Shown here in pieces: positions 9,628 through 29,475 of a stretch of DNA of 64,000 nucleotides. The notes below the pieces were generated by a model. It was not told the origin of the DNA. It worked only from the letters and a program-made list of their open reading frames with translations, and did not search any database. The stretch is taken from contig CAZZHI010000001.1 of NCBI GenBank assembly GCA_964654145.1, forward strand, positions 9,956 to 73,955, written 5' to 3'. Each line of letters begins with the position of its first letter. The first letter of the stretch is position 1. The stretch comes from an uncultured Candidatus Saccharibacteria bacterium (GTDB lineage Bacteria; Patescibacteriota; Andersenbacteria; UBA10190). Both the position numbers and the translations under genes were made by a program.

Positions 9628-10329
9628 ATGGCGATGTTCGACATGATGGCACCTCGTTCAAAGGGGAAAGCGAGCCAAACTCTCATCAATATCTCTGAGT
9701 TACGAGATGGGATTGTTATATTAAAAGATAACACCATGCGCGCAGTGCTCATGATTTCTTCTGTAAACTTCGCACTGAAGTCTGAAGATGAGCAAAATGC
9801 TATCGTATATGCATATCAAGACTTTATTAACTCGTTAGATTTTCCAATTCAACTTACAATATCTTCCCGAAAGATGGACATCACGCCCTACCTGGAGGAG
9901 GTTAAGCACCTGCGCGACCTGCAAAAAAATGAGCTCCTTCATCTCCAGATGACGGAATATATTAACTTCGTCTCGGAACTCGTAAAAGGAAGTAATATTA
10001 TGACAAAAACATTTTTTGTAACTATTCCCTTCGCAGTAACACAAGATAAAAAAGAAGGATTCTTCTCCAGAATGACAAAAGGGGCAAAAGGAGCTGCCGG
10101 AAAGGGGAAAATGAACGATATTGAATTTGAACATAACAAAACTCAGCTTATGCATAGGGTAGAGCAGGTTGCAATTGGACTGCGAGGCATCGGGCTGCGA
10201 GTAGTGCCGCTAAAAACCCAGGAATTAATCGAGTTATTCTACAACTACTTCAACCCCTCCACCTCCCGAAACCAAAGATTGCGAAACGTAGACAAGCTCA
10301 CAGTTCAGGAAACAGATACACCCCTATGA
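9628..10329 (+). CDS. VirB4/CagE/TrbE-like N-terminal domain protein (first of two coupled ORFs)
   Basis: The ISELRDGIVILKDNTMRAVLMISSVNFALKSEDEQNAIVYAYQDFINSLDFPIQLTISSRK segment matches the VirB4 N-terminal-domain pattern. Its stop overlaps the next ATG (ATGA at 10326-10329). Confidence 0.55.
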   Translation: MAMFDMMAPRSKGKASQTLINISELRDGIVILKDNTMRAVLMISSVNFALKSEDEQNAIVYAYQDFINSLDFPIQLTISSRKMDITPYLEEVKHLRDLQKNELLHLQMTEYINFVSELVKGSNIMTKTFFVTIPFAVTQDKKEGFFSRMTKGAKGAAGKGKMNDIEFEHNKTQLMHRVEQVAIGLRGIGLRVVPLKTQELIELFYNYFNPSTSRNQRLRNVDKLTVQETDTPL

Positions 10330-12623: not shown

Positions 12624-13207
12624 TTTTTACATTTATACTTCTAATATTTTTCTGCGCTACCAGCCCCCTTGCTTTAAGGGCCCAAGAATCTGGCAGCACA
12701 GCCCAAACGAGCGGGTTTGGAAAATTTGAAGTAGGCCTGCCAGGGATTCCCAGCGACACAACAATCGATAGCTTTGCCAGCGATCCTGAACCCATCCTTA
12801 AATTTATTAACCTAGCCACAAATGCCGTAATTGCAATTTTAGTTATTATTGGCCTTATTAGTATCACTGTTGGCGGATACTTATATATGACAGCAGCTGG
12901 AAATGGGAAGCAAATTGAAACCGCAAAAGAAATAATAATTGCAGCATTGGCTGGAATATTTCTAGCCCTTATATCAGTTGTCATACTTAATACAATCAAC
13001 AACTACTTAGGGAAAGACGCGAAAGAACCTACGCTCGGGCCTGTGGAGGGCTCAGCGCTTGATAGCCCTTCGGGAGCAATGCAGAATTTTAATAGTGACG
13101 GTAATTCCTTCGAAAACTTTGAAGACTTCGATAGTTCTGGTGGATCTTTTGAAGACCTAGATAATCCCGACTCATTCGGAAGCCCAGATAACCTTCCTAC
13201 GCTCTAG
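12605..13207 (+). CDS. Secreted 2-TM hairpin protein with an acidic tail, VirB2/TrbC-like pilin candidate
   Basis: The track ORF starts at 12557, but the internal Met at 12605 gives a typical signal peptide (MSKLSIIFTFILLIFFCATSPLALRA|QE). This is followed by two hydrophobic helices separated by AAGNGKQIETAKE and a D/E/F-rich tail. Confidence 0.4.
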   Translation: MSKLSIIFTFILLIFFCATSPLALRAQESGSTAQTSGFGKFEVGLPGIPSDTTIDSFASDPEPILKFINLATNAVIAILVIIGLISITVGGYLYMTAAGNGKQIETAKEIIIAALAGIFLALISVVILNTINNYLGKDAKEPTLGPVEGSALDSPSGAMQNFNSDGNSFENFEDFDSSGGSFEDLDNPDSFGSPDNLPTL

Positions 13208-14420
13208 GAATACGATGAAGGGTGGGAAGTAAGCTGAGTGTAAAGAATGCCCACCATAGGGCAGAGAGATCATTTTTCCAGTAGATTGTATCAACAAGTC
13301 CAAATAACAGCATACACACCACGGCTAGAATGCTTGCTTGCTGATATATGTCTGCGTGTTTTATTGCCTGGCTCCACGCCCCTATAACAAAAGAATTTAA
13401 TGCAACAAAACTTACAAGCCCCAAAAGCCCCATATTAAGGTAAAAGGAAAGTATCCAGTTGTGCGGATCTCGAAATACGAATTCGTGTTGCAATACATAT
13501 AATCCGTTCCATAGACCAGCCCGCTGCTTACTAAAAAGCCCATGAAGCTCTGCTTGATACGCCTGTTCAAATTGCCCCAAGCCAACCCCTAGAAGAGGGT
13601 TTTTTTGGATAAGCCGTATTCCAATGTCCCATAACTGCAATCGAACCGTTACAGAATTTCCAAAAGATCTATCCGATAAAGGAAGAAGAATATAGTGCAA
13701 ACGCCCTGAAGCAAAAAACACTGCGCCTGCACACAAAACCGTAAGAAGTAGCCCCAATATCAATTTTTTTGCACTCACGGAGGGTACTGTGCGCCAAGAA
13801 AAGATGAGGCCACCTATAAGGCATCCAATTATTGCGGCCATAGCACCGAAAGACTGGGTTGCAATAATAGCAGTTAAAAGAAAAATTGCGCCTATTCCAT
13901 AAAAACGATCCCGCCCGCGTATCCAAAGCCATATAGATAAAACCGCTATTGGAGCAAGAAACAGCGCAAGAGAATTCGGAACATCGTACAACGCGGCAAT
14001 GCGTTCAAAGTTACGGATCTGAGATAGTCCGATCAGTGCAACAACCAAACCAGAACATACAAAAGAATAGAGTATTTCTTTACGCCCACGTTTAATCCCC
14101 ACAAGATACAGTAAAAAACTAAACATAATAGGAGTCACAATCCAACTTTTCAAAATACCCAAACTAGAGCGTAAAACAGGAGAATAAAAAGTTGCCAAAA
14201 GCGCAGCGACAACAAATAAAATGACCCACACTCTATACACAAAGGAAATGCCAAGCATGGCGCCCAAGAGATATTTTCGAAACCTTGGATTGCTAAGAGC
14301 AATAAGCAGAACGCTCCAAACCATAACCTCAAAAAGATTTGTAGGAATTCCAGCGATTGAAAACCTTACGACGTATAAAGGAAGCAGCCCCGCCAGAATT
14401 GTAATAAGCGTATATATCAT
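13197..14420 (-). CDS. Polytopic membrane protein, O-antigen ligase/polymerase (Wzy/WaaL-like) family candidate
   Basis: The protein is 407 aa with at least 10 TM helices and a large loop. It is the first minus-strand gene of a glycosyltransferase/flippase cluster. Confidence 0.4.
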   Translation of the reverse strand: MIYTLITILAGLLPLYVVRFSIAGIPTNLFEVMVWSVLLIALSNPRFRKYLLGAMLGISFVYRVWVILFVVAALLATFYSPVLRSSLGILKSWIVTPIMFSFLLYLVGIKRGRKEILYSFVCSGLVVALIGLSQIRNFERIAALYDVPNSLALFLAPIAVLSIWLWIRGRDRFYGIGAIFLLTAIIATQSFGAMAAIIGCLIGGLIFSWRTVPSVSAKKLILGLLLTVLCAGAVFFASGRLHYILLPLSDRSFGNSVTVRLQLWDIGIRLIQKNPLLGVGLGQFEQAYQAELHGLFSKQRAGLWNGLYVLQHEFVFRDPHNWILSFYLNMGLLGLVSFVALNSFVIGAWSQAIKHADIYQQASILAVVCMLLFGLVDTIYWKNDLSALWWAFFTLSLLPTLHRIPRA

Positions 14421-15724
14421 AGAGTAAGCGCTGCGAAGATAATGTACGGAATAAGGACGTGAGGATATAAGATGCTATTTACGAATTGAGCATGCACAAG
14501 CAGGGCAATAGTTGCCCAAACAAAGAAGAGAGAGTTGTAACTCCGCATAAAAAGCCAGCGCCGTATATGGAATACCACCCCCAAGAGCATGGGGGTAAAA
14601 AATAGAAGAGCTCCAACCATCCCGGTAGTCACCAGAATAGTAAAAATACTGTTGTCAGACCCTGCGCGCGAGTGTACAGAGAAACTAGATACGAGATTTT
14701 CATTTGCTGCAGCAAATTGATACGCATTATACCCGACACCGAACAACATATTTGGACTAACCAAAAATCTCCAGACAGATCGGTAAGACTCCGCCCTGAG
14801 TGCTATTGTTGGGTCATGAAAAAAAACTTGATATGCCCGTTCTCGAAGGAGGGTAATACTTCCGGAAAAAATAATAACTAACAACACACCTCCGGGCACA
14901 ATTGCTTTCTTCCAGTTTCCAGAAATCTTAGATGAAAATACCCAAATAATTCCGCAACATAAACCCGCAACCAAAAGAGCAAGATAAGAACTTCTAGACT
15001 CCGTTAAACCGATGGCTACAACCGCAAAAAACAACCAAAAAATTCGAGTGATTGCAGAAACTTTATGCGGCATCCAATACAAAAATATAGGGAGAAATAC
15101 TACAAAGAATATCCCCAAAAAATTAGGGTCGAGCCACGTTGAAACCATCCTATCAATATGCGGATCCCAACCGTTGTCCACAAATCCAGCAAGGCTGGGG
15201 AGAAAGAATAGCTGCACAAATCCAGCAACGAGCAATGCTCCATAGAGATACACGAACCCCTTTTTCATGCTAGAAAAAATACTGGGCAGAGAGGTTGCAA
15301 TAAGGGCTGCCGGGAGCAATGAAAGCACCACGGCAAGCCTGATCCAATACAGAAAAGAAATACGAATATCTACCATCTGGTATACCCCCACGTGAGCCAC
15401 AAGTACTGCTAACCCCCAAAGCAAAAACGGAGAGATAGCAATAGACGCTAAAAAAATCTTCTTAGTATAGAAAGGCAATTCTCCCCTTAATAGAGATACG
15501 AATAAGGATAATAAAAAGACAAGAACCGCAATATCACTCACCAAAAGACCACCCCCTTGCCCCTGCAGCGGGATGCGGATAAGTTGTCCTAAAAATAACG
15601 ATAGATAAACTCCGGTGATCGAAGCTTTCAGGGAAAATATCATCCCAAAGACACATGCCGCAACTAAGAGACCCGTGGTCGTAGCAATCGGTAAATACTC
15701 CGCAAGAATCTCTGAAGCTTCCAT
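14417..15724 (-). CDS. Polytopic membrane protein, O-antigen ligase/polymerase-like (paralog of the previous gene)
   Basis: The protein is 435 aa with multiple TM helices. The track start at 15724 overlaps the upstream GT2 gene by 61 nt. An internal Met (MIFSLKAS, about 15643) is an alternative start. Confidence 0.4.
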   Translation of the reverse strand: MEASEILAEYLPIATTTGLLVAACVFGMIFSLKASITGVYLSLFLGQLIRIPLQGQGGGLLVSDIAVLVFLLSLFVSLLRGELPFYTKKIFLASIAISPFLLWGLAVLVAHVGVYQMVDIRISFLYWIRLAVVLSLLPAALIATSLPSIFSSMKKGFVYLYGALLVAGFVQLFFLPSLAGFVDNGWDPHIDRMVSTWLDPNFLGIFFVVFLPIFLYWMPHKVSAITRIFWLFFAVVAIGLTESRSSYLALLVAGLCCGIIWVFSSKISGNWKKAIVPGGVLLVIIFSGSITLLRERAYQVFFHDPTIALRAESYRSVWRFLVSPNMLFGVGYNAYQFAAANENLVSSFSVHSRAGSDNSIFTILVTTGMVGALLFFTPMLLGVVFHIRRWLFMRSYNSLFFVWATIALLVHAQFVNSILYPHVLIPYIIFAALTL

Positions 15725-16434
15725 ATATAAATAGGGTAGTGCTTTTTATAGTACCTGTCAGCCGAGTCGTCGTATATCAGAGTCTTTTTCTTTTTATTTA
15801 ATTTACTACCCCCTCGCCGGTGGACTACTAATGCCCGAGGATCAAGCATAACAACACGTCCTTCTGCGCGAGCCCGATGACACAAATCGATGTCCTCCCA
15901 ATACAAGAAAAAGCCTTCATCAAACCCTCCCAATTTTTCAAAAAATTCCCTTGATATAAGAAGTGCTCCGCCAGAGACCCAACCAACAGAGACGGGCATA
16001 CGTGGCATTACGTTTCGATATGCATGCCTTGTTAGTAGATTGAATATTCCAGGCTCTTCGCCATAGGAATTTTTTTCAGGAACCATATAAGAATCGGAGA
16101 GCAACATTCCCACAATACCAACACGGGGAATAGCTTGCATCGTATGTGCAGCATACTCTATTGCACCACCAATAAGCTTTGCGTCTGGGTTCAAGAAAAG
16201 AACATATTCCGTGTTCAATAATCGCGCTGCCTTATTTGCAGCGTATCCGAACCCCAGATTCTCCCGCAGATCTTCGCAGGCACGCCCCAAGCGAGTAATC
16301 TCCGCAACCGTTCCGTCATTAGATGCACTATCCACAATCGCGATATCGGAAATACCCGCAGATAGAACACTCTCAATACAGGCGGCTATATCTTGCTCGT
16401 TATTATGCGTAACAATAGCAACTCCTATATTCAT
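15664..16434 (-). CDS. Family 2 glycosyltransferase (GT-A fold)
   Basis: It has VAIVTHNNEQDIAACIESV, DSASNDGT and DAK (DxD-like) motifs. The track ORF extends to 16563, but Met MNIGVAIV at 16434 avoids a 133-nt overlap with the upstream gene. Confidence 0.7.
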   Translation of the reverse strand: MNIGVAIVTHNNEQDIAACIESVLSAGISDIAIVDSASNDGTVAEITRLGRACEDLRENLGFGYAANKAARLLNTEYVLFLNPDAKLIGGAIEYAAHTMQAIPRVGIVGMLLSDSYMVPEKNSYGEEPGIFNLLTRHAYRNVMPRMPVSVGWVSGGALLISREFFEKLGGFDEGFFLYWEDIDLCHRARAEGRVVMLDPRALVVHRRGGSKLNKKKKTLIYDDSADRYYKKHYPIYIWKLQRFLRSIYRLLRPRVS

Positions 16435-17294
16435 AGAGCCATTTGTCCTAATTTTTTCATGCGAGCATCGCGCAAGGCCTGCACAATACCAGAGTGCCCA
16501 TTCCCCATAATTATATGATAGAAAATCCGTAGAGTGTTTTTCGCATACCAAAACATCCTCCAAGTAAACGGTGTTAGCCTTTCTAGCACATAGGCCCCGT
16601 TTCGTACCAAGTAATACAGCTTATCGGGCAAAAGCACCCCGATTGAATCATTATGAAGTACGGAGATATTAGGAATAATAGCGAGCACCCCTCCTATTGC
16701 TCGAACCCGCATACTTATAGCAACATCCTCCCAATACATGAAAAAATCTTCATAGAAGGGGATCTGCTGAGCGAATCCATACTCCAAAACCATACAACAA
16801 CCGTGAATATAAGGAATTACAAAGGGACTTCTTTCTTCTAAGCGCCCTACAACATCCGCCCTCCCAGAAAGAAGCGAAACGGCACCCCAAGAAGCTCCCG
16901 CCAGTACGGCATGCCCCCCTGACTCATCCCACCAAATCGCAATATCCCTTAAGGCGCTAGGGGACAGGATAAGGTCATTATTGAGAAGAACGCAGACATC
17001 AGCATCTTTTGCGCCTATAACCCCGGCATACTGTATTCCGGCCCGCAATCCCGACGCGTACCCGTTATTTCTAAAAGGGCGAACAACCTCAACTGGCACA
17101 AGGGGAGTGAAGGAGGCTGAAGAATGATCAACCACAATAATTTTTTCCGGATCACATCCAGCCGTAAGGGCCGCCTCTATTGCCACATCAGTCTTTTCCC
17201 TTGATCCAAAATGGACAAAAATAACGAATATATCCCTTTTCTGTGGAGAGCTTGTGGATAAATCTGTGGATAATGTCGTATTTTTTGTGAACAT
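16431..17294 (-). CDS. Family 2 glycosyltransferase
   Basis: It has IFVIFVHFGS, NNGYASG and NND motifs. Codons 7-17 coincide with a cluster of DnaA-box motifs (see findings). Confidence 0.65.
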   Translation of the reverse strand: MFTKNTTLSTDLSTSSPQKRDIFVIFVHFGSREKTDVAIEAALTAGCDPEKIIVVDHSSASFTPLVPVEVVRPFRNNGYASGLRAGIQYAGVIGAKDADVCVLLNNDLILSPSALRDIAIWWDESGGHAVLAGASWGAVSLLSGRADVVGRLEERSPFVIPYIHGCCMVLEYGFAQQIPFYEDFFMYWEDVAISMRVRAIGGVLAIIPNISVLHNDSIGVLLPDKLYYLVRNGAYVLERLTPFTWRMFWYAKNTLRIFYHIIMGNGHSGIVQALRDARMKKLGQMAL

Positions 17295-17333
17295 GATGCG
17301 TATTCTGTACTATTATAGCTTAATAGAGCATTT

Positions 17334-18242
17334 TTATTTCTTTTCGCTTTTCAACAGTTTGTTCGCATGGTGTACGCCATACCAAAATTCTCCCGCGTTT
17401 ATAATTGCAAAAATACGCGGAATATTAAGGATATCACCCCACTTCTCCATAAAGTACCGAGCAAGGCCCCTAATACCCAAGGCCCCGTATAGGGCGTGGC
17501 GCAGCCTACGAATCGAATTGGTGTTCACGCGATACTTTGCAGACCCAACTATCCGCTGCCTATGCAGAATATCTTTTGCAACGTAAAAATGTCGGTGCAG
17601 GGCAAGGGAGTTATGAAGTATATGCAGTATGAGCCCAAGGGAATCTAATCGCTTACCAAACTCTAGATCTTCCCATCCGTATTGAGAAAACTCTTCTGAA
17701 AATCTTTCACCTCCCAAAAAACTCCTTTTTACCGAAACAAATGATCCGTAGAAAAAATCTCTCCCTAGGCATGTCGTGCGGCCCAGCAATGCATCATAAT
17801 CATTTTGCTGTCCTCCATGAGTCATCCACTCCATAAGTGGCGTAGGAGCTATCCTGGGGTCCCAGACGATACATCCGAGAGCCGCTGCCTCTACTTCCGG
17901 ATGAATTGTATGGAAAGCCATATGCTCTTTCAAAGCGCCCTGACGAAGAATCATATCATCCGCTAAAAACAATATGATATCGGCTGTTGCATTAGTAATA
18001 CCAATATTACGAGCTTGCGCCCTACCTCCGCGAGAAGTCCGAATAATAAGAGGGGATTCCCACAAGCCTATCCAATCGTGCCCTCGAATAAGGCTTGCTA
18101 CATCTTCCGTTGAACCATCATCGACAAGAATTACCCGCGCACTCCATTGGCGTGGCATGTCCTGATCAAGGAGCGCAGGAAGGGCTACGCGCAACTTTTC
18201 GCATCCATTGTAAGTTGGGATAATAATATCGCACTTATTCAT
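17334..18242 (-). CDS. Family 2 glycosyltransferase
   Basis: It has CDIIIPTYNGCEKL...VILVDDGSTED...FLADDMI motifs. Confidence 0.75.
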   Translation of the reverse strand: MNKCDIIIPTYNGCEKLRVALPALLDQDMPRQWSARVILVDDGSTEDVASLIRGHDWIGLWESPLIIRTSRGGRAQARNIGITNATADIILFLADDMILRQGALKEHMAFHTIHPEVEAAALGCIVWDPRIAPTPLMEWMTHGGQQNDYDALLGRTTCLGRDFFYGSFVSVKRSFLGGERFSEEFSQYGWEDLEFGKRLDSLGLILHILHNSLALHRHFYVAKDILHRQRIVGSAKYRVNTNSIRRLRHALYGALGIRGLARYFMEKWGDILNIPRIFAIINAGEFWYGVHHANKLLKSEKK

Positions 18243-21241: not shown

Positions 21242-21533
21242 TATCCTGAACCTTCATAAAACGAATTTCGGGAGTTGTTGCCACTATTACAATATCTAAT
21301 TGCTCTTGTTTTATATCTAAAAACTTACAGGCGGCCCGTATTTTTCTCTGCACAGAATGTCTCACCACAGCGCTCTTATGAACTTTCTTCCCAGCAATAC
21401 AAGCAAAGCGAAGAGCGCCCACATTCGAGGGCGCTATATATACAGAAGCTATATTCGTTCGAATTCGAGCCCCCGTTGTAACCACCCTTTTAATATCAGA
21501 ATCAGCAGATAGACGATTCTTAAAAGGGAGCAT
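21213..21533 (-). CDS. rnpA: Ribonuclease P protein component RnpA
   Basis: The protein is 106 aa and basic, with a KKVHKSAVVRHSVQRKIRAA (RNR-motif-like) segment. It lies downstream of rpmH. Confidence 0.8.
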   Translation of the reverse strand: MLPFKNRLSADSDIKRVVTTGARIRTNIASVYIAPSNVGALRFACIAGKKVHKSAVVRHSVQRKIRAACKFLDIKQEQLDIVIVATTPEIRFMKVQDIAREISHAF

Positions 21534-21535
21534 TA

Positions 21536-21673
21536 TTACATTTTTGGAATAAGCCGAGCTCTGCCGCGCTTTCTCCTGCGCGCAAGAACGTTTGGACTTT
21601 TCCTTTTTCGGGCAAGAAATCCAAATCTTCGCGCCCGACGGCGCTTACTTGGTTGGTAGGTTCGTTTTGGCAT
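21536..21673 (-). CDS. rpmH: 50S ribosomal protein L34
   Basis: This ORF is not in the ORF track because it is under 60 aa. Reverse-strand translation of 21673 to 21536 gives MPKRTYQPSKRRRARRFGFLARKRKSPNVLARRRKRGRARLIPKM, which matches the L34 consensus (MKRTYQPSKxKRxRxHGFRARM...GRKVLxRRRAKGR). Confidence 0.85.
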   Translation of the reverse strand: MPKRTYQPSKRRRARRFGFLARKRKSPNVLARRRKRGRARLIPKM

Positions 21674-21786
21674 GTGATGATGATGACGTATTCATTAAAA
21701 CAAGTCAAGACCGGGGCTGTATTACAAACTTTCCACAAATTATCAACACCTTTTCCACACTTTGAGGCTTAAGCCCCTTTCTTAAC

Positions 21787-21795
21787 TGTGGATAA
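21787..21795. promoter_or_regulatory. Perfect DnaA box (TGTGGATAA) 3 bp upstream of the dnaA start codon
   Basis: The sequence reads ctgTGTGGATAAccATG. Two weaker boxes (tttccacaa at 21731-21739, ttttccaca at 21751-21759) lie upstream in the rpmH-dnaA spacer. Confidence 0.6.
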
Positions 21796-21797
21796 CC

Positions 21798-23222
21798 ATG
21801 ATACGCTATTTTTCGTATATGAAAGATGCTCAAATATGGAAAGTCGCACTCGATCAGCTTGAGCTTAAAGTAAGCCAGGGGAACTTCCTTACTTGGTTCC
21901 GGAATACTAGCATTAAAGAAAGGAATGGAAGCACATTACTCATAGAAACAAAAAACCCATTCGCATACGAATGGCTATCTAAAAAATATCGTCCTATTAT
22001 CCTAGAGACTCTTCAGGGTATTGATTCTAAAATTTCAGATGTTAAGTTTTGTATCGCATCAAAAAGCACAGAAAAAAGAATTATTAAAAAAAATATCCGT
22101 GTCATTGCCCAAAAAAACGCCTCCGCAAGCTCAATAGGTACATCTTTATCAGGAACACCCTCAAATACAGTCCAAGAATCATCAAAAGATCATCCATCAT
22201 CACTTCCATTTAATAAAAATTATACTTTCGACACATTCGTTGTTGGCACAAGTAATGAAATTGCCCACGCGGCTTGCCGCGCGGTTGCCGCACGCCCCGG
22301 GGAAGCGTATAACCCTCTCTTTATTTATGGGGGAGTAGGATTAGGTAAAACACACCTCCTCCAAGCTGTTGGTAATACTATAAAAGAAGCTAATCCAAAC
22401 TTTACTGTCCTATATGTTGCTTCGGAAAAATTCGCAAATGAATTCGTGGAATCCCTCCAAGAGCACACTACCCAACAATTTAAAAAAAGGTATAGAAATA
22501 TAGATGTTCTTATTATTGACGATGTTCAATTTTTTGCCGGTAAAGACAAAACACAAGAAGAGCTCTTTTATACATTTAACGCGCTTCATAGCCAAAACAA
22601 ACAACTTATCTTAAGTAGCGATCGACCACCTAGCGCAATCCCTACACTCCAGGAACGATTATCATCCAGACTTTCAGCTGGAATGATTGCTGATATTAAA
22701 AAACCAGATTACGAAACTCGCCTCGCAATACTTCAGGAAAAAAGAGACTTACGAAATATTCCAATAGACCAAGACGCATTAGTATTTATCGCTAAGAATA
22801 TTCAAAGTAATGTAAGGGAATTAGAGGGTGCCCTTAACAGAGTTGCGGCATACTGCGAACTCCATAAAGAACGAGCAACTGTAGAGTATACAAAACATAT
22901 CCTTAAAGACATTTTAGAAAAACCCCAAAGAAAAACTATAAACGTAGAAGATTTAATTGCCGCAGTTAGCTCTTACTATAACGTCCCCAACACTGAACTA
23001 AGGGGGAAGTCTAGAAAAAAAGAAATTGTGCGCCCCCGCCAAGTTGCTATGTACCTCCTCAGAAAAGAAAGTAGTATGTCGTTCCCATCTATTGGTAACC
23101 ACTTTAGTGGAAGAGACCACACTACAGCTATGCACGCTTGTGAAAAAATAGAAAAACTTATAGAGCACGATGAGGAACTCTCTCGAGAGATCGGCTTCCT
23201 CCGAGAAAGAATATATGCCTAG
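21798..23222 (+). CDS. dnaA: Chromosomal replication initiator DnaA
   Basis: It has an AAA+ Walker A (GGVGLGKTHLL), a Walker B (LIIDDVQF), and a C-terminal DNA-binding domain (VAMYLLRKESSMSFPSIGNHFSGRDHTTAMHA). Confidence 0.95.
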   Translation: MIRYFSYMKDAQIWKVALDQLELKVSQGNFLTWFRNTSIKERNGSTLLIETKNPFAYEWLSKKYRPIILETLQGIDSKISDVKFCIASKSTEKRIIKKNIRVIAQKNASASSIGTSLSGTPSNTVQESSKDHPSSLPFNKNYTFDTFVVGTSNEIAHAACRAVAARPGEAYNPLFIYGGVGLGKTHLLQAVGNTIKEANPNFTVLYVASEKFANEFVESLQEHTTQQFKKRYRNIDVLIIDDVQFFAGKDKTQEELFYTFNALHSQNKQLILSSDRPPSAIPTLQERLSSRLSAGMIADIKKPDYETRLAILQEKRDLRNIPIDQDALVFIAKNIQSNVRELEGALNRVAAYCELHKERATVEYTKHILKDILEKPQRKTINVEDLIAAVSSYYNVPNTELRGKSRKKEIVRPRQVAMYLLRKESSMSFPSIGNHFSGRDHTTAMHACEKIEKLIEHDEELSREIGFLRERIYA

Positions 23223-23462
23223 TGTGAGTAAATTGTGGGTAACCACACACCTAGTGAGGAAAACCTGTGTGCATATAATAAAGTTTTCCCAAACCATCCC
23301 CAGTTCCTATATTTTTCCACACAGAAAATCCACAGATCTACAAAAAATATCCACATCTTTTCCAATGAGCAAGTATCTGTGTAAAGCCTTTTTATCCCCT
23401 TATCCCCAGATTTTCTCCTTACTACAATAACGTATAACTAACTTTTATATTATTACGGCCTT
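23223..23462. other. Candidate oriC: dnaA-dnaN intergenic region with clustered DnaA-box-like motifs and an AT-rich unwinding stretch
   Basis: It contains tgtgggtaa (23234-23242), ttttccaca (23313-23321), aaatccaca (23326-23334), atatccaca (23347-23355), ttatcccct/ttatcccca (23392-23408), then acttttatattatta just before dnaN. Each motif is within 1-2 mismatches of TTATCCACA. Confidence 0.55.
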
Positions 23463-24569
23463 ATGAAATTCACATGTACGCAGGAAAACTTACTTCGAGG
23501 GGTCTCACAAGTTGCTCCAATAGCGGGTCGGAACGCTCAGCTTCCAATTCTGCAAAATATTCTTCTTCAGGTTCAAAATAATACACTAGCACTTACAACA
23601 ACTGATTTAGAGATAGGTATTAAAACTCAAATAGGTGGAAAGATGGAAGAAGATGGAAGTTGTGTTCTCCCTGCTAAAAGGTTTATGGAGTATGTTCAGC
23701 AACTTCCTAAGACAAACCCCATAACACTAGAAAAGAAGGAGGGTAAGGTTTTTGTTACCACAAAAGGATTTCGTGCTCAGTTTTTATCTGCTGATCCTGA
23801 AGAATACCCACTTCTTCCTGAAAATGTAAAAGATGACCCTATTACTATTAATGCAAAGATGTTTTGCGGCGCTATAAGTCAAACAATATTTTCTGCAACA
23901 CGGGAAGAGACAAGGCCTGAAATTAGGAGTGTGTATATAGTGTGGAAAGATGGAGGAATACACGTTGCTGCAACAGATAGTTTTCGACTCGCAGAGTATA
24001 CGGCCGCACTCCAGTCTTCTGATGATGGTGTGTCTCTTTTATTACCACTAGCTTCAGCCCAAGAGGTTGTTCGACTGTTTCATGAACAGGAGAGTATTCG
24101 TATCGCACTTTATGATAATTACGTTTCATTTGAAAGTGGTGGTATTGAGCTTACTTCGCGTCTTGTTGATGGTAAATATCCAAACTATGAAGATATTATC
24201 CCTACAAGTCATACAACAAAAATACAGATAGGTAGGGATGATTTATTACGAGCATTAAAAACACTATCCGTTTTTCTTCCAAAAGAATCACGTAGGGTCT
24301 CTTTGGAAATTCGTCCAGTAAAAGGTGAGGTTCTACTACGTGTTGCTGGGGGTGATGTGGGGCAGGGTGACGTTATTATTAGTGTTGAGGGTGAAGGTGA
24401 AGATGTGAATGTGTTGGTGAATATTCAATATCTTATAGATGGAATATCTCATTTTTCAGGAGATGTTTGTGAAGGGTTCTTTTTAGGGGCTTTTGATCCG
24501 GTTGTTTTTCGAAGGCAGAGTAAGGATGATGCGTATTTATATGTAATTATGCCAATTCAGGCCCAATAG
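23463..24569 (+). CDS. dnaN: DNA polymerase III beta sliding clamp DnaN
   Basis: The protein is 368 aa and starts MKFTCTQENLLRGVSQV. It has a three-domain beta-clamp size and pattern. Confidence 0.9.
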   Translation: MKFTCTQENLLRGVSQVAPIAGRNAQLPILQNILLQVQNNTLALTTTDLEIGIKTQIGGKMEEDGSCVLPAKRFMEYVQQLPKTNPITLEKKEGKVFVTTKGFRAQFLSADPEEYPLLPENVKDDPITINAKMFCGAISQTIFSATREETRPEIRSVYIVWKDGGIHVAATDSFRLAEYTAALQSSDDGVSLLLPLASAQEVVRLFHEQESIRIALYDNYVSFESGGIELTSRLVDGKYPNYEDIIPTSHTTKIQIGRDDLLRALKTLSVFLPKESRRVSLEIRPVKGEVLLRVAGGDVGQGDVIISVEGEGEDVNVLVNIQYLIDGISHFSGDVCEGFFLGAFDPVVFRRQSKDDAYLYVIMPIQAQ

Positions 24570-26646: not shown

Positions 26647-29475
26647 TTATTCAATAGTAATTGTGTGGGTTGATGATTGTGTGCTGTTTCCGGTTTTGTC
26701 GTATGCAACAGCATAGAGGCGGTATGTTCCTGGCCCTGGGGATGTTTGCCATGTAGAGTCATAGCGGTTTGGGTTTGATGAAGTTGGACTCGTGATGCGA
26801 ACTGCTCGTTGTGTACTCGTACTATCTTCTTTTGAGTACAGTACGTCTACAAAGTCGACTCCACTTGCGTCTGTTGCTGTTGTTTTAATAGTAAAGGGAA
26901 AGGCTGATTCCTTGATTTTGCTATTATTACCAGGTGTGTGAAGGGTGATTTTAGGGGCAGAGCTGTCAGGGTTGATTATAAATGTTCGATGAGCAACTCC
27001 AATAAGGCTATCTTCGGTGATCGCCTGTATGATAAGCGTTTTTCTACCCGAGAATGAAGAGGGGAATGAGAGGGAGGCTTCGTATGGCTCACCGGCTTTT
27101 CGGGAGGCTATTTCTTGCCCATCTACTAAGAAGCGCACAGTTTTTAGTGGGTGGCTAGATTCTATTTCTGCTACAATTTTTGTCGGACTTTCTTTTAGAA
27201 TTGTTTCACTTGGTGATGCAATCCTAACCTTTGGAAGCTCTTCACTACTCCCAATATTACAAGAAGGGGTTGGAAGTGATGTCACATATAGCGGTTCCGC
27301 AGGGTCATCTTTTTTCTCTTCGTTATGCTTTGCTGCCCATGCGGCAATCGCTGCTTCCCAGTTATTAAATTGAGGATCTGCTTCTGCCTGGGCTGGAGGT
27401 TGTCCATTTGGGTCTCCTTTTCGCGTGTAAAATAGGATGCTATGAATTTCTTTAAAGGTCCGTATTTGGCCAACGTTTATTGGGCAGTCTACTGTGTAGA
27501 GAGTTTGAGTTTCTGCTACCCATTTTCCCTTCACTTCAGGCATTTTTCCATCGATTATTCCATTTGGCGCAGGCTCTTGGGGTTCGGGGTTTGTAAATTG
27601 TTCAATTGGAGTTCCCTCTAGTGCTTTTTTCATAAAAGCATTCCAGATTGGGGCTGCGGTGTGGGCCCCTGCTGACTTACCGTTCATTGGGGAGTTGTCA
27701 TTATTTCCCGTCCAAACCCCTGCAACTAGGGATGGGGTGTAGCCAACGGTCCATCCGTCTCTAAAATCTTGAGTAGTTCCTGTTTTTGCCGCCGCCGGGC
27801 GTGCTCCTAGCTGAAGTGGGCTGTTTGTGCCGAATACAATCGATCGAGCATTGTTATCAGATAGTACATTCGTTACTGTTCTCGCAACTTGTGGATCGAG
27901 CGCTGATGTTCCTTGCACTGGATTTTTTTCTGCATCAAAGAGCGTCTCGTCTCCATGTTCTACTTTTAGGATTGCTCGAGGGGGGAGTTTTGTTCCCTCG
28001 TTTGCAAATACTCCATATGCGCTTGTTATATCGAGCAAACGCACCTCTCCTCCTCCAAGAACGAGCGATAAGCCATATCGATCTGGGTCTGTCAGTGTTG
28101 AGAGGCCCATCGCCTGCGCTAAGTTTATAGAATTCTTTACGCCAGCGAGGTATAAGGTTTTTACTGCAGGAATGTTAAACGAATTTCCTAAAGAAGACCG
28201 CATGGAGACAGGCCCTTTTTGGGAGAGGTCATAGTTTTTAGGAATGTACCCTTGGCCGAAATCTGTCTCAGCGTCTATGAGGATTGTTTCAGGCCTGTAG
28301 CCCTCTTGGAATGCCGCAGCATATATAAAAGGCTTGATAGATGACCCTGGGGATCGTAATCGAATCGCTACGTTTACGTTCCCATCAATTTCTTTATCGA
28401 AATAGTCCATTGAGCCAACCATCGCGAGAATATCTCCAGTCTTAGGGTTTATTGCAACCAGTGATGCATTTTTTGCGCCACCAGCTTTCAGGCGATCCCT
28501 GTAATTTTTCATCGCGTCTTCAGCGGCTTTTTGAAGGCGCATATCTAGCGATGTAATAACTTTTAACCCCCCTTGCCCAACAACCCGCTCTCCGTATTCC
28601 TGTTCAAGGAGCTCTTTTATATAAAAGACAAAATGAGGCGCTTGGATGTTTTCAGATGCGGCTTGGAATGAAAGGGTCTCTTTCTTCGCCTGTTCCGCTT
28701 CTTCTTTACTGATCATTCCAAGATCTGCCATGCGGCCAATAATATATTCTTGGCGAGACTTTAGATCATCCATGTGTGACCCGTAAGGGGAGTATCGCGT
28801 AGGCGCTTGGGGCATGGCTGCGAGCGTGGCGGCTTGAGCAATTGTAAGGTTCTGTGATGAAATTCCGAAGAATGTTTGAGCTGCCGCTTCTATCCCATAC
28901 GATCTGCTCCCGTAAGGAATGGCATTGAGGTACATTTCTAAAATCTCATCTTTTGAAAATCGTTGCTCAAGTTCTATCGCAAGCACAGCCTCTTTAACCT
29001 TTCGCTGAAGGGTTCTTTCTGGTGAGAGGATGGAATTTTTAATAAGCTGTTGCGTAATAGTGGAGCCTCCTTGAGCTCTTTGGCCGCTTAGGGGTTTTAA
29101 GATTACACCTCTAATTAAACCGCTCAACTTGATTCCTCGGTGCTCATAAAATTTGTCATCTTCTGCAGCAAGGGTTGCCTTTGCTACGTAGGATGAAATA
29201 TTCGAAAGTTTTACATATGTGCGTTTCGCCTCTCCTATTTCGTATAAGAGGTTTTTTCCAGTTGAGTCATATATTTTTGTGGACTCATTTATTGGGCCTT
29301 GTTGAATATTACTCGGATCTGGCAAATCTCGACTCCACCAAAGAACCGTTCCTGCGGATACAAGAAGTAATACCCCGGCCGCGGTAAGGGCTTTGGGAAT
29401 CATTTTTCTGGAAAACAGTCGGTGGAATAAAATGGCGCCAATATGAGTATGTCTATTGTATCGCCTTGTTGGCAT
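26647..29475 (-). CDS. Class A penicillin-binding protein (PBP1A: GT51 transglycosylase + transpeptidase) with a C-terminal Ig-like extension of about 250 aa
   Basis: It has an N-terminal TM helix, GT51 motifs (EDDKFYEHRGI, TITQQL), and transpeptidase motifs SxxK (GSSIKP) and KTG (KTGTT). A beta-rich tail with two repeated modules follows. Confidence 0.9.
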   Translation of the reverse strand: MPTRRYNRHTHIGAILFHRLFSRKMIPKALTAAGVLLLVSAGTVLWWSRDLPDPSNIQQGPINESTKIYDSTGKNLLYEIGEAKRTYVKLSNISSYVAKATLAAEDDKFYEHRGIKLSGLIRGVILKPLSGQRAQGGSTITQQLIKNSILSPERTLQRKVKEAVLAIELEQRFSKDEILEMYLNAIPYGSRSYGIEAAAQTFFGISSQNLTIAQAATLAAMPQAPTRYSPYGSHMDDLKSRQEYIIGRMADLGMISKEEAEQAKKETLSFQAASENIQAPHFVFYIKELLEQEYGERVVGQGGLKVITSLDMRLQKAAEDAMKNYRDRLKAGGAKNASLVAINPKTGDILAMVGSMDYFDKEIDGNVNVAIRLRSPGSSIKPFIYAAAFQEGYRPETILIDAETDFGQGYIPKNYDLSQKGPVSMRSSLGNSFNIPAVKTLYLAGVKNSINLAQAMGLSTLTDPDRYGLSLVLGGGEVRLLDITSAYGVFANEGTKLPPRAILKVEHGDETLFDAEKNPVQGTSALDPQVARTVTNVLSDNNARSIVFGTNSPLQLGARPAAAKTGTTQDFRDGWTVGYTPSLVAGVWTGNNDNSPMNGKSAGAHTAAPIWNAFMKKALEGTPIEQFTNPEPQEPAPNGIIDGKMPEVKGKWVAETQTLYTVDCPINVGQIRTFKEIHSILFYTRKGDPNGQPPAQAEADPQFNNWEAAIAAWAAKHNEEKKDDPAEPLYVTSLPTPSCNIGSSEELPKVRIASPSETILKESPTKIVAEIESSHPLKTVRFLVDGQEIASRKAGEPYEASLSFPSSFSGRKTLIIQAITEDSLIGVAHRTFIINPDSSAPKITLHTPGNNSKIKESAFPFTIKTTATDASGVDFVDVLYSKEDSTSTQRAVRITSPTSSNPNRYDSTWQTSPGPGTYRLYAVAYDKTGNSTQSSTHTITIE

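Follow-up and report, generated by a model that had tools for sequence, protein, structure and literature searches.

In a 64,000-nucleotide stretch of the genome assembly of an uncultured Candidatus Saccharibacteria bacterium (contig CAZZHI010000001.1; hereafter the window), a compact array of binding motifs for the replication initiator DnaA overlaps the start of a glycosyltransferase (GT) gene, here named GTq, which follows a GT2-type gene named GTup. Based on comparison with related genomes, we are highly confident that this is a DnaA-box array maintained by selection. The best reading of the sequences is that the array would act as a DnaA operator for the distal half of a Wzx/Wzy glycan operon (GT-GT-Wzy-Wzy), placed at the promoter or 5' end of that half; it would most likely tie the expression of envelope-glycan genes, and perhaps the availability of DnaA, to the replication cycle. 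That transcriptional control of the GT-Wzy genes is the main role of the array is a proposal that we hold with slightly more confidence than doubt.

The forward strand across the core of the array reads cTGTGGAGAGctTGTGGATAAatcTGTGGATAAtg, with motifs starting at 17242 (TGTGGAGAG), 17253 (TGTGGATAA) and 17265 (TGTGGATAA); all three share one orientation, with starts 11 and 12 bp apart. An earlier annotation made from the letters alone (the sequence-only reading) had reported these three co-oriented motifs as DnaA boxes, two of them perfect. The positions and spacing were correct, and two of the motifs are perfect copies of TTATCCACA; the third (CTCTCCACA), however, has two mismatches. The motifs had been assigned to codons 7-17 of GTq, but they occupy codons 8-18. 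The GTq product starts MFTKNTTLSTDLSTSSPQKRDIFVIFVHFG, and the boxes are read in frame on the reverse strand as TTA-TCC-ACA, encoding L-S-T. The array is also larger than had been described, as it includes a degenerate box at the GTq start codon (ATGTTCACA) and an inverted box (TTTTCAACA) within GTup. We refer to the co-oriented boxes as A to D, in the direction of transcription; coordinates are given in Table 1.

Boxes B and C are separated by a 3-bp spacer and form a perfect double DnaA box (0+0 mismatches), and boxes C and D, with a 2-bp spacer, form a second one (0+2 mismatches). Box A lies 21 bp, or two helical turns, upstream of box B. Compared with the DnaA consensus (TTATCCACA or TTWTNCACA), the flanking boxes carry two or three mismatches, whereas boxes B and C carry none. 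Perfect copies of TTATCCACA occur exactly three times in the window (17253, 17265 and 21787) against 0.62 expected, and the third (21787-21795) stops just 2 nt short of the dnaA start codon (ATG at 21798); we agree with the earlier statements that two adjacent perfect boxes are unlikely by chance and that the only other perfect box adjoins the start of dnaA. Co-oriented box pairs spaced by 2-3 bp were found five times in the window against 0.13 expected: two at the GT site, two upstream of dnaA, one after dnaA, and none elsewhere.

Homologues place the organism among the Patescibacteria, as a member of Candidatus Andersenbacteria. We compared the window with 27 orthologous loci from species-representative genomes, for a total of 28 genomes in which DnaA is 59-100% identical. 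All 28 Andersenbacteria genomes have a co-oriented, helically phased array at the same gene junction. The position of box B holds TTATCCACA or TTTTCCACA in 26 of the 28 genomes, and box C is conserved in 27; box D takes the form nATTCCACA or nAATCCACA, with a TCCACA core that is nearly invariant across 25 aligned loci. Within 452.7 kb of sequence, there are 70 perfect boxes, of which 35, all oriented alike, fall within the 91-bp GT site, which makes up 0.6% of the sequence, and 27 fall within the oriC/dnaA region. The sequence-only reading had proposed two checks, one for perfect boxes scattered through the genome and one for conservation of the array in orthologous loci. Neither check spoke against the array: only eight perfect boxes lie in the ~413 kb outside the two DnaA loci, and the array is kept well beyond coding constraint. 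Wherever the flanking sequence is long enough, the loci share the gene order dnaN-dnaA<>yidC-jag-wzx-GT-GT-GT-Wzy-Wzy, and this synteny extends to outgroup L029, in which DnaA is only 47% identical; in all genomes with sufficient flank, this outgroup among them, the array keeps a constant distance of 4.5 kb to dnaA.

The orthologous loci form two subclades. In subclade 1 (the window and 13 loci), the array has the form AGAATACGCAT(C/A)-ATGTTCACA-n12-TTATCCACA-GAn-TTATCCACA-nnn-ATTCCACA(A/G), without indels. Of the 13 subclade-1 sequences long enough upstream to show it, 12 have the inverted TTTTCAACA, at -61 or -62 from the ATG, and only L016 lacks it. In L016 (10001-10802; MAG MHHP01000014.1), the GTq frame breaks after 84 codons, owing to a frameshift or an assembly error, and boxes B and C are still perfect. 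In the deeper subclade 2 (14 loci, ~33% protein identity), the array consists of TTATCCCCA or TTATCCACA at the position of box A, 21 bp, TTTTCCACA or TTATCCACA, 12 bp, TTATCCACA, 11 bp, and AATCCACA. Here the boxes, including box A, lie outside the open reading frame (ORF), and several loci have stop codons in the box frame. The subclade-2 ATG directly follows box C (TTATCCACA-ATG-AAT-CCA-CAA); in L017, the ATG lies between boxes A and B.

Two outgroup loci, L029 and L031, which come from more distant Patescibacteria with this synteny, have a degenerate array with 11-bp phasing (TCCACA-gt-TTGTACACA-tt-TGGTAAACA) just upstream of the ATG, where the boxes are non-coding. The motif common to both is TCCACA-gy-TTGTACACA-tt-TGnTAAACA; synteny was confirmed up to dnaA only for L029 (site 9940-9995), in which the dnaA promoter still has boxes of the TTATCCACA type. 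The more distant GT homologues L030-L053 have no boxes, aside from the degenerate array of L031. Given the arrangement in subclade 2 and the outgroup, it is the boxes that stay constant and the start codon that varies. Judging from these sequences, the start codon in the window's subclade moved upstream into box A, and the boxes thereby became translated.

The translated boxes belong to an N-terminus, MFTKNxxLSTDLSTxIPQ, that is the most conserved stretch of the protein in an alignment of 36 homologues (41-99% identity), with S9, T10, L12, S13 and T14 invariant. We analyzed codon usage in 11 non-redundant subclade-1 genes and used, for comparison, 19 other invariant residues with at least four synonymous codons. 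Residues within the boxes are encoded by one codon each (TCC, ACA, TCC, ACA and CCA); L12 is TTA in 10 of the 11 genes, and the box B codons TTA/TCC/ACA are invariant. By comparison, each of the 19 other residues draws on more than one codon, with a mean of 3.7. The codon for P17 is always CCA, the base just after box D (the third position of Q18) varies between A and G, and sequence variation resumes exactly at the box edges. AlphaFold2 predicted a confident GT-A fold for GTq (mean predicted local distance difference test score, or pLDDT, of 86.5), with residues 1-17 scoring below 50 and strand beta1 starting at residue 22, and the conserved N-terminal peptide is accordingly predicted to be disordered. 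Foldseek matches of the model include GalNAc-T2, GlfT2 and TarS/TarP. The site has no Rfam match above noise, and RNAalifold predicted zero consensus pairs across 25 loci. Taken together, codon usage, pLDDT and the absence of an Rfam match or RNAalifold structure indicate constraint on double-stranded DNA rather than on protein or RNA; the sequences thus identify the MFTKNxxLSTDLSTxIPQ peptide as a by-product of translated boxes.

The DnaA encoded in the window appears equipped to read these boxes. Its domain IV, aligned to the E. coli structure 1J1V, keeps RPRQ, SFPSIG and GRDHTTAMH, and it retains all six residues (R399, P423, D433, H434, T435 and H439, in E. coli numbering) that PMC2533591 lists as contacting bases in E. 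coli DnaA. The dnaA promoter of the same genome shares its grammar with the array, as it has co-oriented boxes at 21729, 21740 and 21751 (11-bp spacing) and the inverted perfect box at 21787; this layout of a double box plus an inverted box is conserved across the clade. The CAACA variant found at 21740, upstream of dnaA, recurs in the inverted TTTTCAACA of the array. Based on chromatin immunoprecipitation sequencing (ChIP-seq) in E. coli, DnaA prefers in vivo co-oriented pairs spaced by 2-3 bp, termed double DnaA boxes, which are typically upstream of regulated genes; examples are polA, purH, nrdA, datA and DARS (PMC11317965). A metagenome scan with TTATCCACAnnnTTATCCACA identified at least 120 loci in a wide range of bacteria, often next to dnaA and accompanied by other boxes. 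Among the metagenome matches listed, none had a GT context and there were no extra orthologues; these occurrences mark the TTATCCACAnnnTTATCCACA pair as a generic DnaA-binding module. We infer that DnaA binds the array.

The sequence-only reading had placed the array just downstream of the neighboring GT gene, as is the case, and had offered two kinds of function: a locus for titration or reactivation of DnaA, similar to datA or DARS, and a DnaA-controlled promoter for a surface-polysaccharide operon. The second fits best because the GTup-GTq spacer is the only gap in an otherwise overlapping string of genes (jag-wzx-GT-GT-GT-Wzy-Wzy) and the array sits there, because the boxes overlap the start codon or promoter zone, and because they follow the grammar of the dnaA promoter. 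The array may also titrate or inactivate DnaA in the manner of datA. A DARS-like role was considered and rejected: the array resembles E. coli DARS1/DARS2 in having a three-box core outside oriC, but its strong boxes are all co-oriented, as are boxes A-D as a whole, and the only inverted box is ~60 bp away, whereas boxes I and II of the DARS core are in opposing orientation (PMC8682772).

Transcription signals in the window bear on where such an operator would act. A Shine-Dalgarno-like motif was found in only 7 of 56 window ORFs, and TANNNT hexamers ending 7-12 nt before the start codon are strongly enriched (29/54 genes), which suggests that leaderless or very short-leader mRNAs are widespread in this genome. 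One example, at 29475 on the reverse strand, is TTGACA-n18-TATAAT-acccct-ATG. If promoters abut start codons, the array must overlap the promoter or transcription start zone of GTq. Boxes that overlap the promoter, or that cover the first ~55 bp of the transcript, would be in the position of a repressing operator or roadblock, and DnaA-dependent repression is therefore the favored sign of regulation.

Candidate promoter elements lie near the GTq start. The non-coding 12-mer AGAATACGCATC (Table 1) is almost invariant in subclade 1, and L020 and L023 have similar sequences; it could represent a weak -10 element (nAGAAT, 7 nt before the ATG) plus discriminator, a short mRNA leader, or some other site. 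Its 10-nt core GAATACGCAT does not behave as a general motif, with one exact copy in the window and one-mismatch copies at chance level. In subclade 2, the spacer between boxes B and C frequently creates one of the hexamers CATATT, CATACT and CATAAT, located 8 nt ahead of the ATG. The GTup stop codon overlaps box A in several genomes.

In the mechanism that we propose, DnaA would occupy boxes B and C as a dimer and, when DnaA-ATP is high, would spread cooperatively onto boxes A and D. Bound DnaA would then occlude the promoter or block early elongation and repress the distal glycan genes; repression would be lifted once DnaA activity falls or the replication fork passes after initiation. Envelope-glycan synthesis would in this way be coupled to the replication cycle. 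Citing earlier work (refs 27-29), PMC11317965 describes DnaA bound in a transcribed or coding region as able to stop elongating RNA polymerase in E. coli, and this roadblock analogy would apply to subclade 1, in which the boxes correspond to codons 1-18. The classical intragenic site in guaB was not confirmed by ChIP-seq (PMC11317965).

Several observations weigh against an operator of the glycan genes. A sigma-70 two-hexamer scan called no promoter on the gene strand at the junction, where we found no convincing conserved -35/-10 pair, and -10-like hexamers in relatives other than those listed in Table 1 occur at varying distances from the GTq start. No terminator was called between GTup and GTq, where hairpins are weak and inconsistent (-0.2 to -7 kcal/mol); a separate transcription unit for GTq is thus not proven. 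Only two boxes in the array are within one mismatch of the consensus, fewer than the four required by the B. subtilis rule for stable binding, with A>0.3, although the local oriC also falls short of that rule. Synteny with oriC is as well conserved as the array, and a role in replication control would explain the conservation about as well. Finally, the box counts are limited to 452.7 kb from the 28 genomes.

The most serious alternative, although we consider it unlikely to be the main role, is that the array serves as a DnaA sink or replication-control element close to oriC. It would bind up or inactivate a small number of DnaA molecules beside the origin and so delay re-initiation, or would help to organize the oriC domain, with any effect on the GT genes being secondary; such a role could coexist with an operator. 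The sequence-only reading had described the array as far from oriC; however, dnaA, dnaN and the minimum of the cumulative GC skew all lie in the window, which puts the array 4.5-6 kb from oriC. A sink would account for the fixed distance to dnaA, even in an outgroup with 47% DnaA identity, and for the boxes kept in L016 despite its frameshifted GT ORF. In B. subtilis, DnaA-box clusters (DBCs) outside but near oriC (thdF-jag, ywlC and yydA) have a dual role in regulating neighboring genes and in negative control of initiation (PMC2533591, PMC3245932); their deletion causes early initiation, with the strongest effect near oriC, and the cluster at thdF-jag resembles the array in its position beside the jag/yidC block. 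Similarly, E. coli datA, a cluster of strong boxes near oriC, depends for its function on position relative to oriC and works best close to it (PMC10380432).

The capacity of such a sink would be small, however, with only two strong and two or three weak boxes. DBCs are defined by at least four clustered boxes within one mismatch of TTATNCACA and an affinity/distance score (Ishikawa A-value) above 0.3, and they comprise 4-8 such boxes in roomy intergenic regions; by contrast, the array has two qualifying boxes plus degenerate ones at a gene junction or within coding sequence. Like DBCs, it lies outside oriC, at 4.5 kb from dnaA; however, only L026 among the 28 genomes passes the score, and 27 fall below it. 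Local oriC regions often fail as well, and the threshold may transfer poorly to this clade. The function of datA depends on a site for integration host factor (IHF) at fixed spacing to boxes 2, 3 and 7, and datA catalyzes hydrolysis of DnaA-ATP (PMC10380432), whereas the array is much more compact, and no IHF consensus is definable for the phylum. Moreover, a pure sink would need no fixed register to the start of one gene, with the start codon shifting around the boxes, and proximity to oriC follows from the conserved synteny of the whole block.

The remaining alternatives are all far less probable and were rejected. It is very doubtful that the conserved DNA is a site for a different factor or functions at the RNA level, through a structured 5' untranslated region or a site for an RNA-binding protein; the subclade-2 boxes do lie in a presumed 5' untranslated region, but the Rfam and RNAalifold results given above argue against RNA, and the motif is the exact DnaA consensus, found elsewhere mainly at oriC/dnaA. 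Slightly less credible still is a second replication origin or unwinding module (tandem boxes with DnaA-trios, the basal unwinding system, or BUS). Tandem co-oriented boxes spaced by no more than 3 bp are the box part of a BUS (PMC8287927), and this pattern is common beside dnaA in metagenome contigs. A BUS, however, has at least three DnaA-trios (NAN) no more than 16 bp from a strong box and, beyond them, a region that unwinds where replication starts (PMC8287927). In the array, the first NAN run begins only 21 nt past the strong box, which exceeds the 16-nt limit, and corresponds to NTN codons of the hydrophobic beta1 strand; the region is coding and has no AT-rich unwinding element, and the GC-skew minimum lies elsewhere, at 23602 in the dnaA-dnaN spacer. 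We give very little credence to protein constraint, in which LSTDLSTxIPQ would work at the N-terminus as a sorting signal, membrane anchor or interaction motif and would match DnaA boxes only by coincidence: although it is the most conserved stretch of the homologues and its frame is open in all 14 subclade-1 sequences, synonymous codons are fixed inside the boxes and free elsewhere, this DNA is not translated in subclade 2 or the outgroup, where the frame contains stops, the peptide is predicted to be disordered, and the motif is the box of the genome's own oriC. Least credible of all, to the point of being negligible, is a chance pair or a recent functionless 12-bp tandem duplication, since, although about one perfect box per 64 kb is expected by chance (0.62) and a 12-bp period of four codons would allow an in-frame duplication, the array is present in 28/28 genomes down to 59% DnaA identity, the 3-nt spacers after the identical 9-mers (GAT and AGC) differ at every position, and Tandem Repeats Finder reported no tandem repeat at the array.

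Known DnaA-controlled promoters offer the closest parallels to an operator of the glycan genes. The double DnaA box sites of E. coli (polA, purH, nrdA, nrdD, mioC and dnaA; PMC11317965) consist of co-oriented 9-mers 2-3 bp apart, with at least one consensus box, near a gene start, and pairs B-C and C-D fit this description exactly. The array differs from them in that neither box of pair B-C has a mismatch, its putative target is a surface-glycan operon and not genes for nucleotide metabolism, replication or repair, translation runs through the boxes in subclade 1, and the host belongs to another phylum. At the oriCII/gidA promoter of P. aeruginosa (PMC13438810), boxes a few kb from oriC control an adjacent operon and so connect initiation with a further process of the cell cycle. 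In that case the boxes are upstream of the promoter, and expression of gidAB-parAB drops when the region is deleted, so that DnaA appears to be an activator; in the array, the position of the boxes, over or after the start codon, points to repression, and the regulated functions differ.

DnaA sites outside oriC that regulate neighboring genes or buffer DnaA are well known, and the array is a further case. What is new is the unstudied phylum, the Wzx/Wzy surface-glycan target, and the translation of binding sites into a spuriously conserved disordered peptide. A literature search combining "DnaA box" and "Patescibacteria" found no paper; as far as this search shows, the array is the first candidate regulatory or titration site for DnaA outside oriC in Patescibacteria (the Candidate Phyla Radiation). 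A link between the initiator and cell-surface glycan genes would be an atypical function for a DnaA regulon. The peptide also carries a caution for the interpretation of motifs, as the most conserved "motif" of a protein can arise simply because DNA-binding sites within its gene are translated. The target, at 60 bp, is both well defined and conserved, and it is approachable without culturing by means of recombinant DnaA. A more ambitious proposal, which we regard as rather improbable, is that the array is a dual cell-cycle switch in Andersenbacteria, and perhaps in related Patescibacteria, serving both as the main DnaA buffer outside oriC and as a license for Wzx/Wzy glycan synthesis only after replication has started. 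This would suppose that the cells are small enough for four or five bound DnaA molecules to matter, and it would amount to a direct checkpoint from replication to the envelope.

Table 1. Features of the DnaA-box array and adjoining genes, in window coordinates.
Feature	Position	Strand	Description
GTup	17334-18242	-	GT2 gene; stop codon 39 bp before GTq ATG
Inverted box	17348-17356	+	TTTTCAACA; within last codons (L-K-S) of GTup
TATAAT hexamer	17312-17317	-	Candidate -10, 17 nt upstream of ATG; in window, L002 and L003
Conserved 12-mer	17295-17306	-	AGAATACGCATC; non-coding, directly upstream of GTq ATG
GTq	16431-17294	-	GT-A fold glycosyltransferase; first 18 codons overlap array
Box A	17286-17294	-	ATGTTCACA; degenerate; supplies GTq start codon in window's subclade
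Box B	17265-17273	-	TTATCCACA; perfect; codons L8-S9-T10 of GTq
Box C	17253-17261	-	TTATCCACA; perfect; codons L12-S13-T14
Box D	17242-17250	-	CTCTCCACA; degenerate; codons S16-P17-Q18; 2 bp after box C
Possible fifth box	17210-17218	-	TTGTCCATT; degenerate, speculative; codons V27-H28; 32 bp after box D
Genes after GTq	13197-16434	-	GT2 15664-16434/16563, Wzy_C 14417-15724, Wzy_C 13197-14420; overlapping or abutting; putative unit controlled by the array

The possible fifth box is accompanied by further regularities. V27 of GTq is encoded by GTC in all 13 subclade-1 sequences tabulated, and the invariant G30 uses all four codons. GTCCA is near-invariant in the 25 aligned loci, and TTGTCCAY, some three helical turns beyond box D, looks like a degenerate DnaA box.

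The forward strand of the window carries dnaA (21798-23222), dnaN (23463-24569) and recF, and the reverse strand carries rnpA, yidD, yidC, jag, a Wzx-type flippase gene, three GT2-type glycosyltransferase genes and two genes for Wzy_C proteins. The oriC lies within the window, with DnaA boxes in the regions 21500-21800 and 23223-23462; boxes with one or two mismatches in the dnaA-dnaN spacer lie at 23234, 23313, 23326, 23347 and 23400.

The loci compared here include metagenome-assembled genomes (MAGs) titled "uncultured Candidatus Saccharibacteria" (L002, L005-L007, L012, L014, L018, L020, L023-L025, L027 and L028). These MAGs have full synteny and up to 85% DnaA identity with MAGs labeled Andersenbacteria, and on this sequence evidence their Saccharibacteria labels are probably wrong.

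The GT2 gene that follows GTq has a mechanically called ORF that starts with TTG at 16563 and overlaps GTq by 133 nt (15664-16563, reverse strand). A start at the ATG at 16434, with a 4-nt overlap (ATGA) with the GTq stop codon, is more likely. Overlaps of 4 nt likewise occur between wzx and GTup and between the two Wzy genes, an arrangement that suggests translational coupling.

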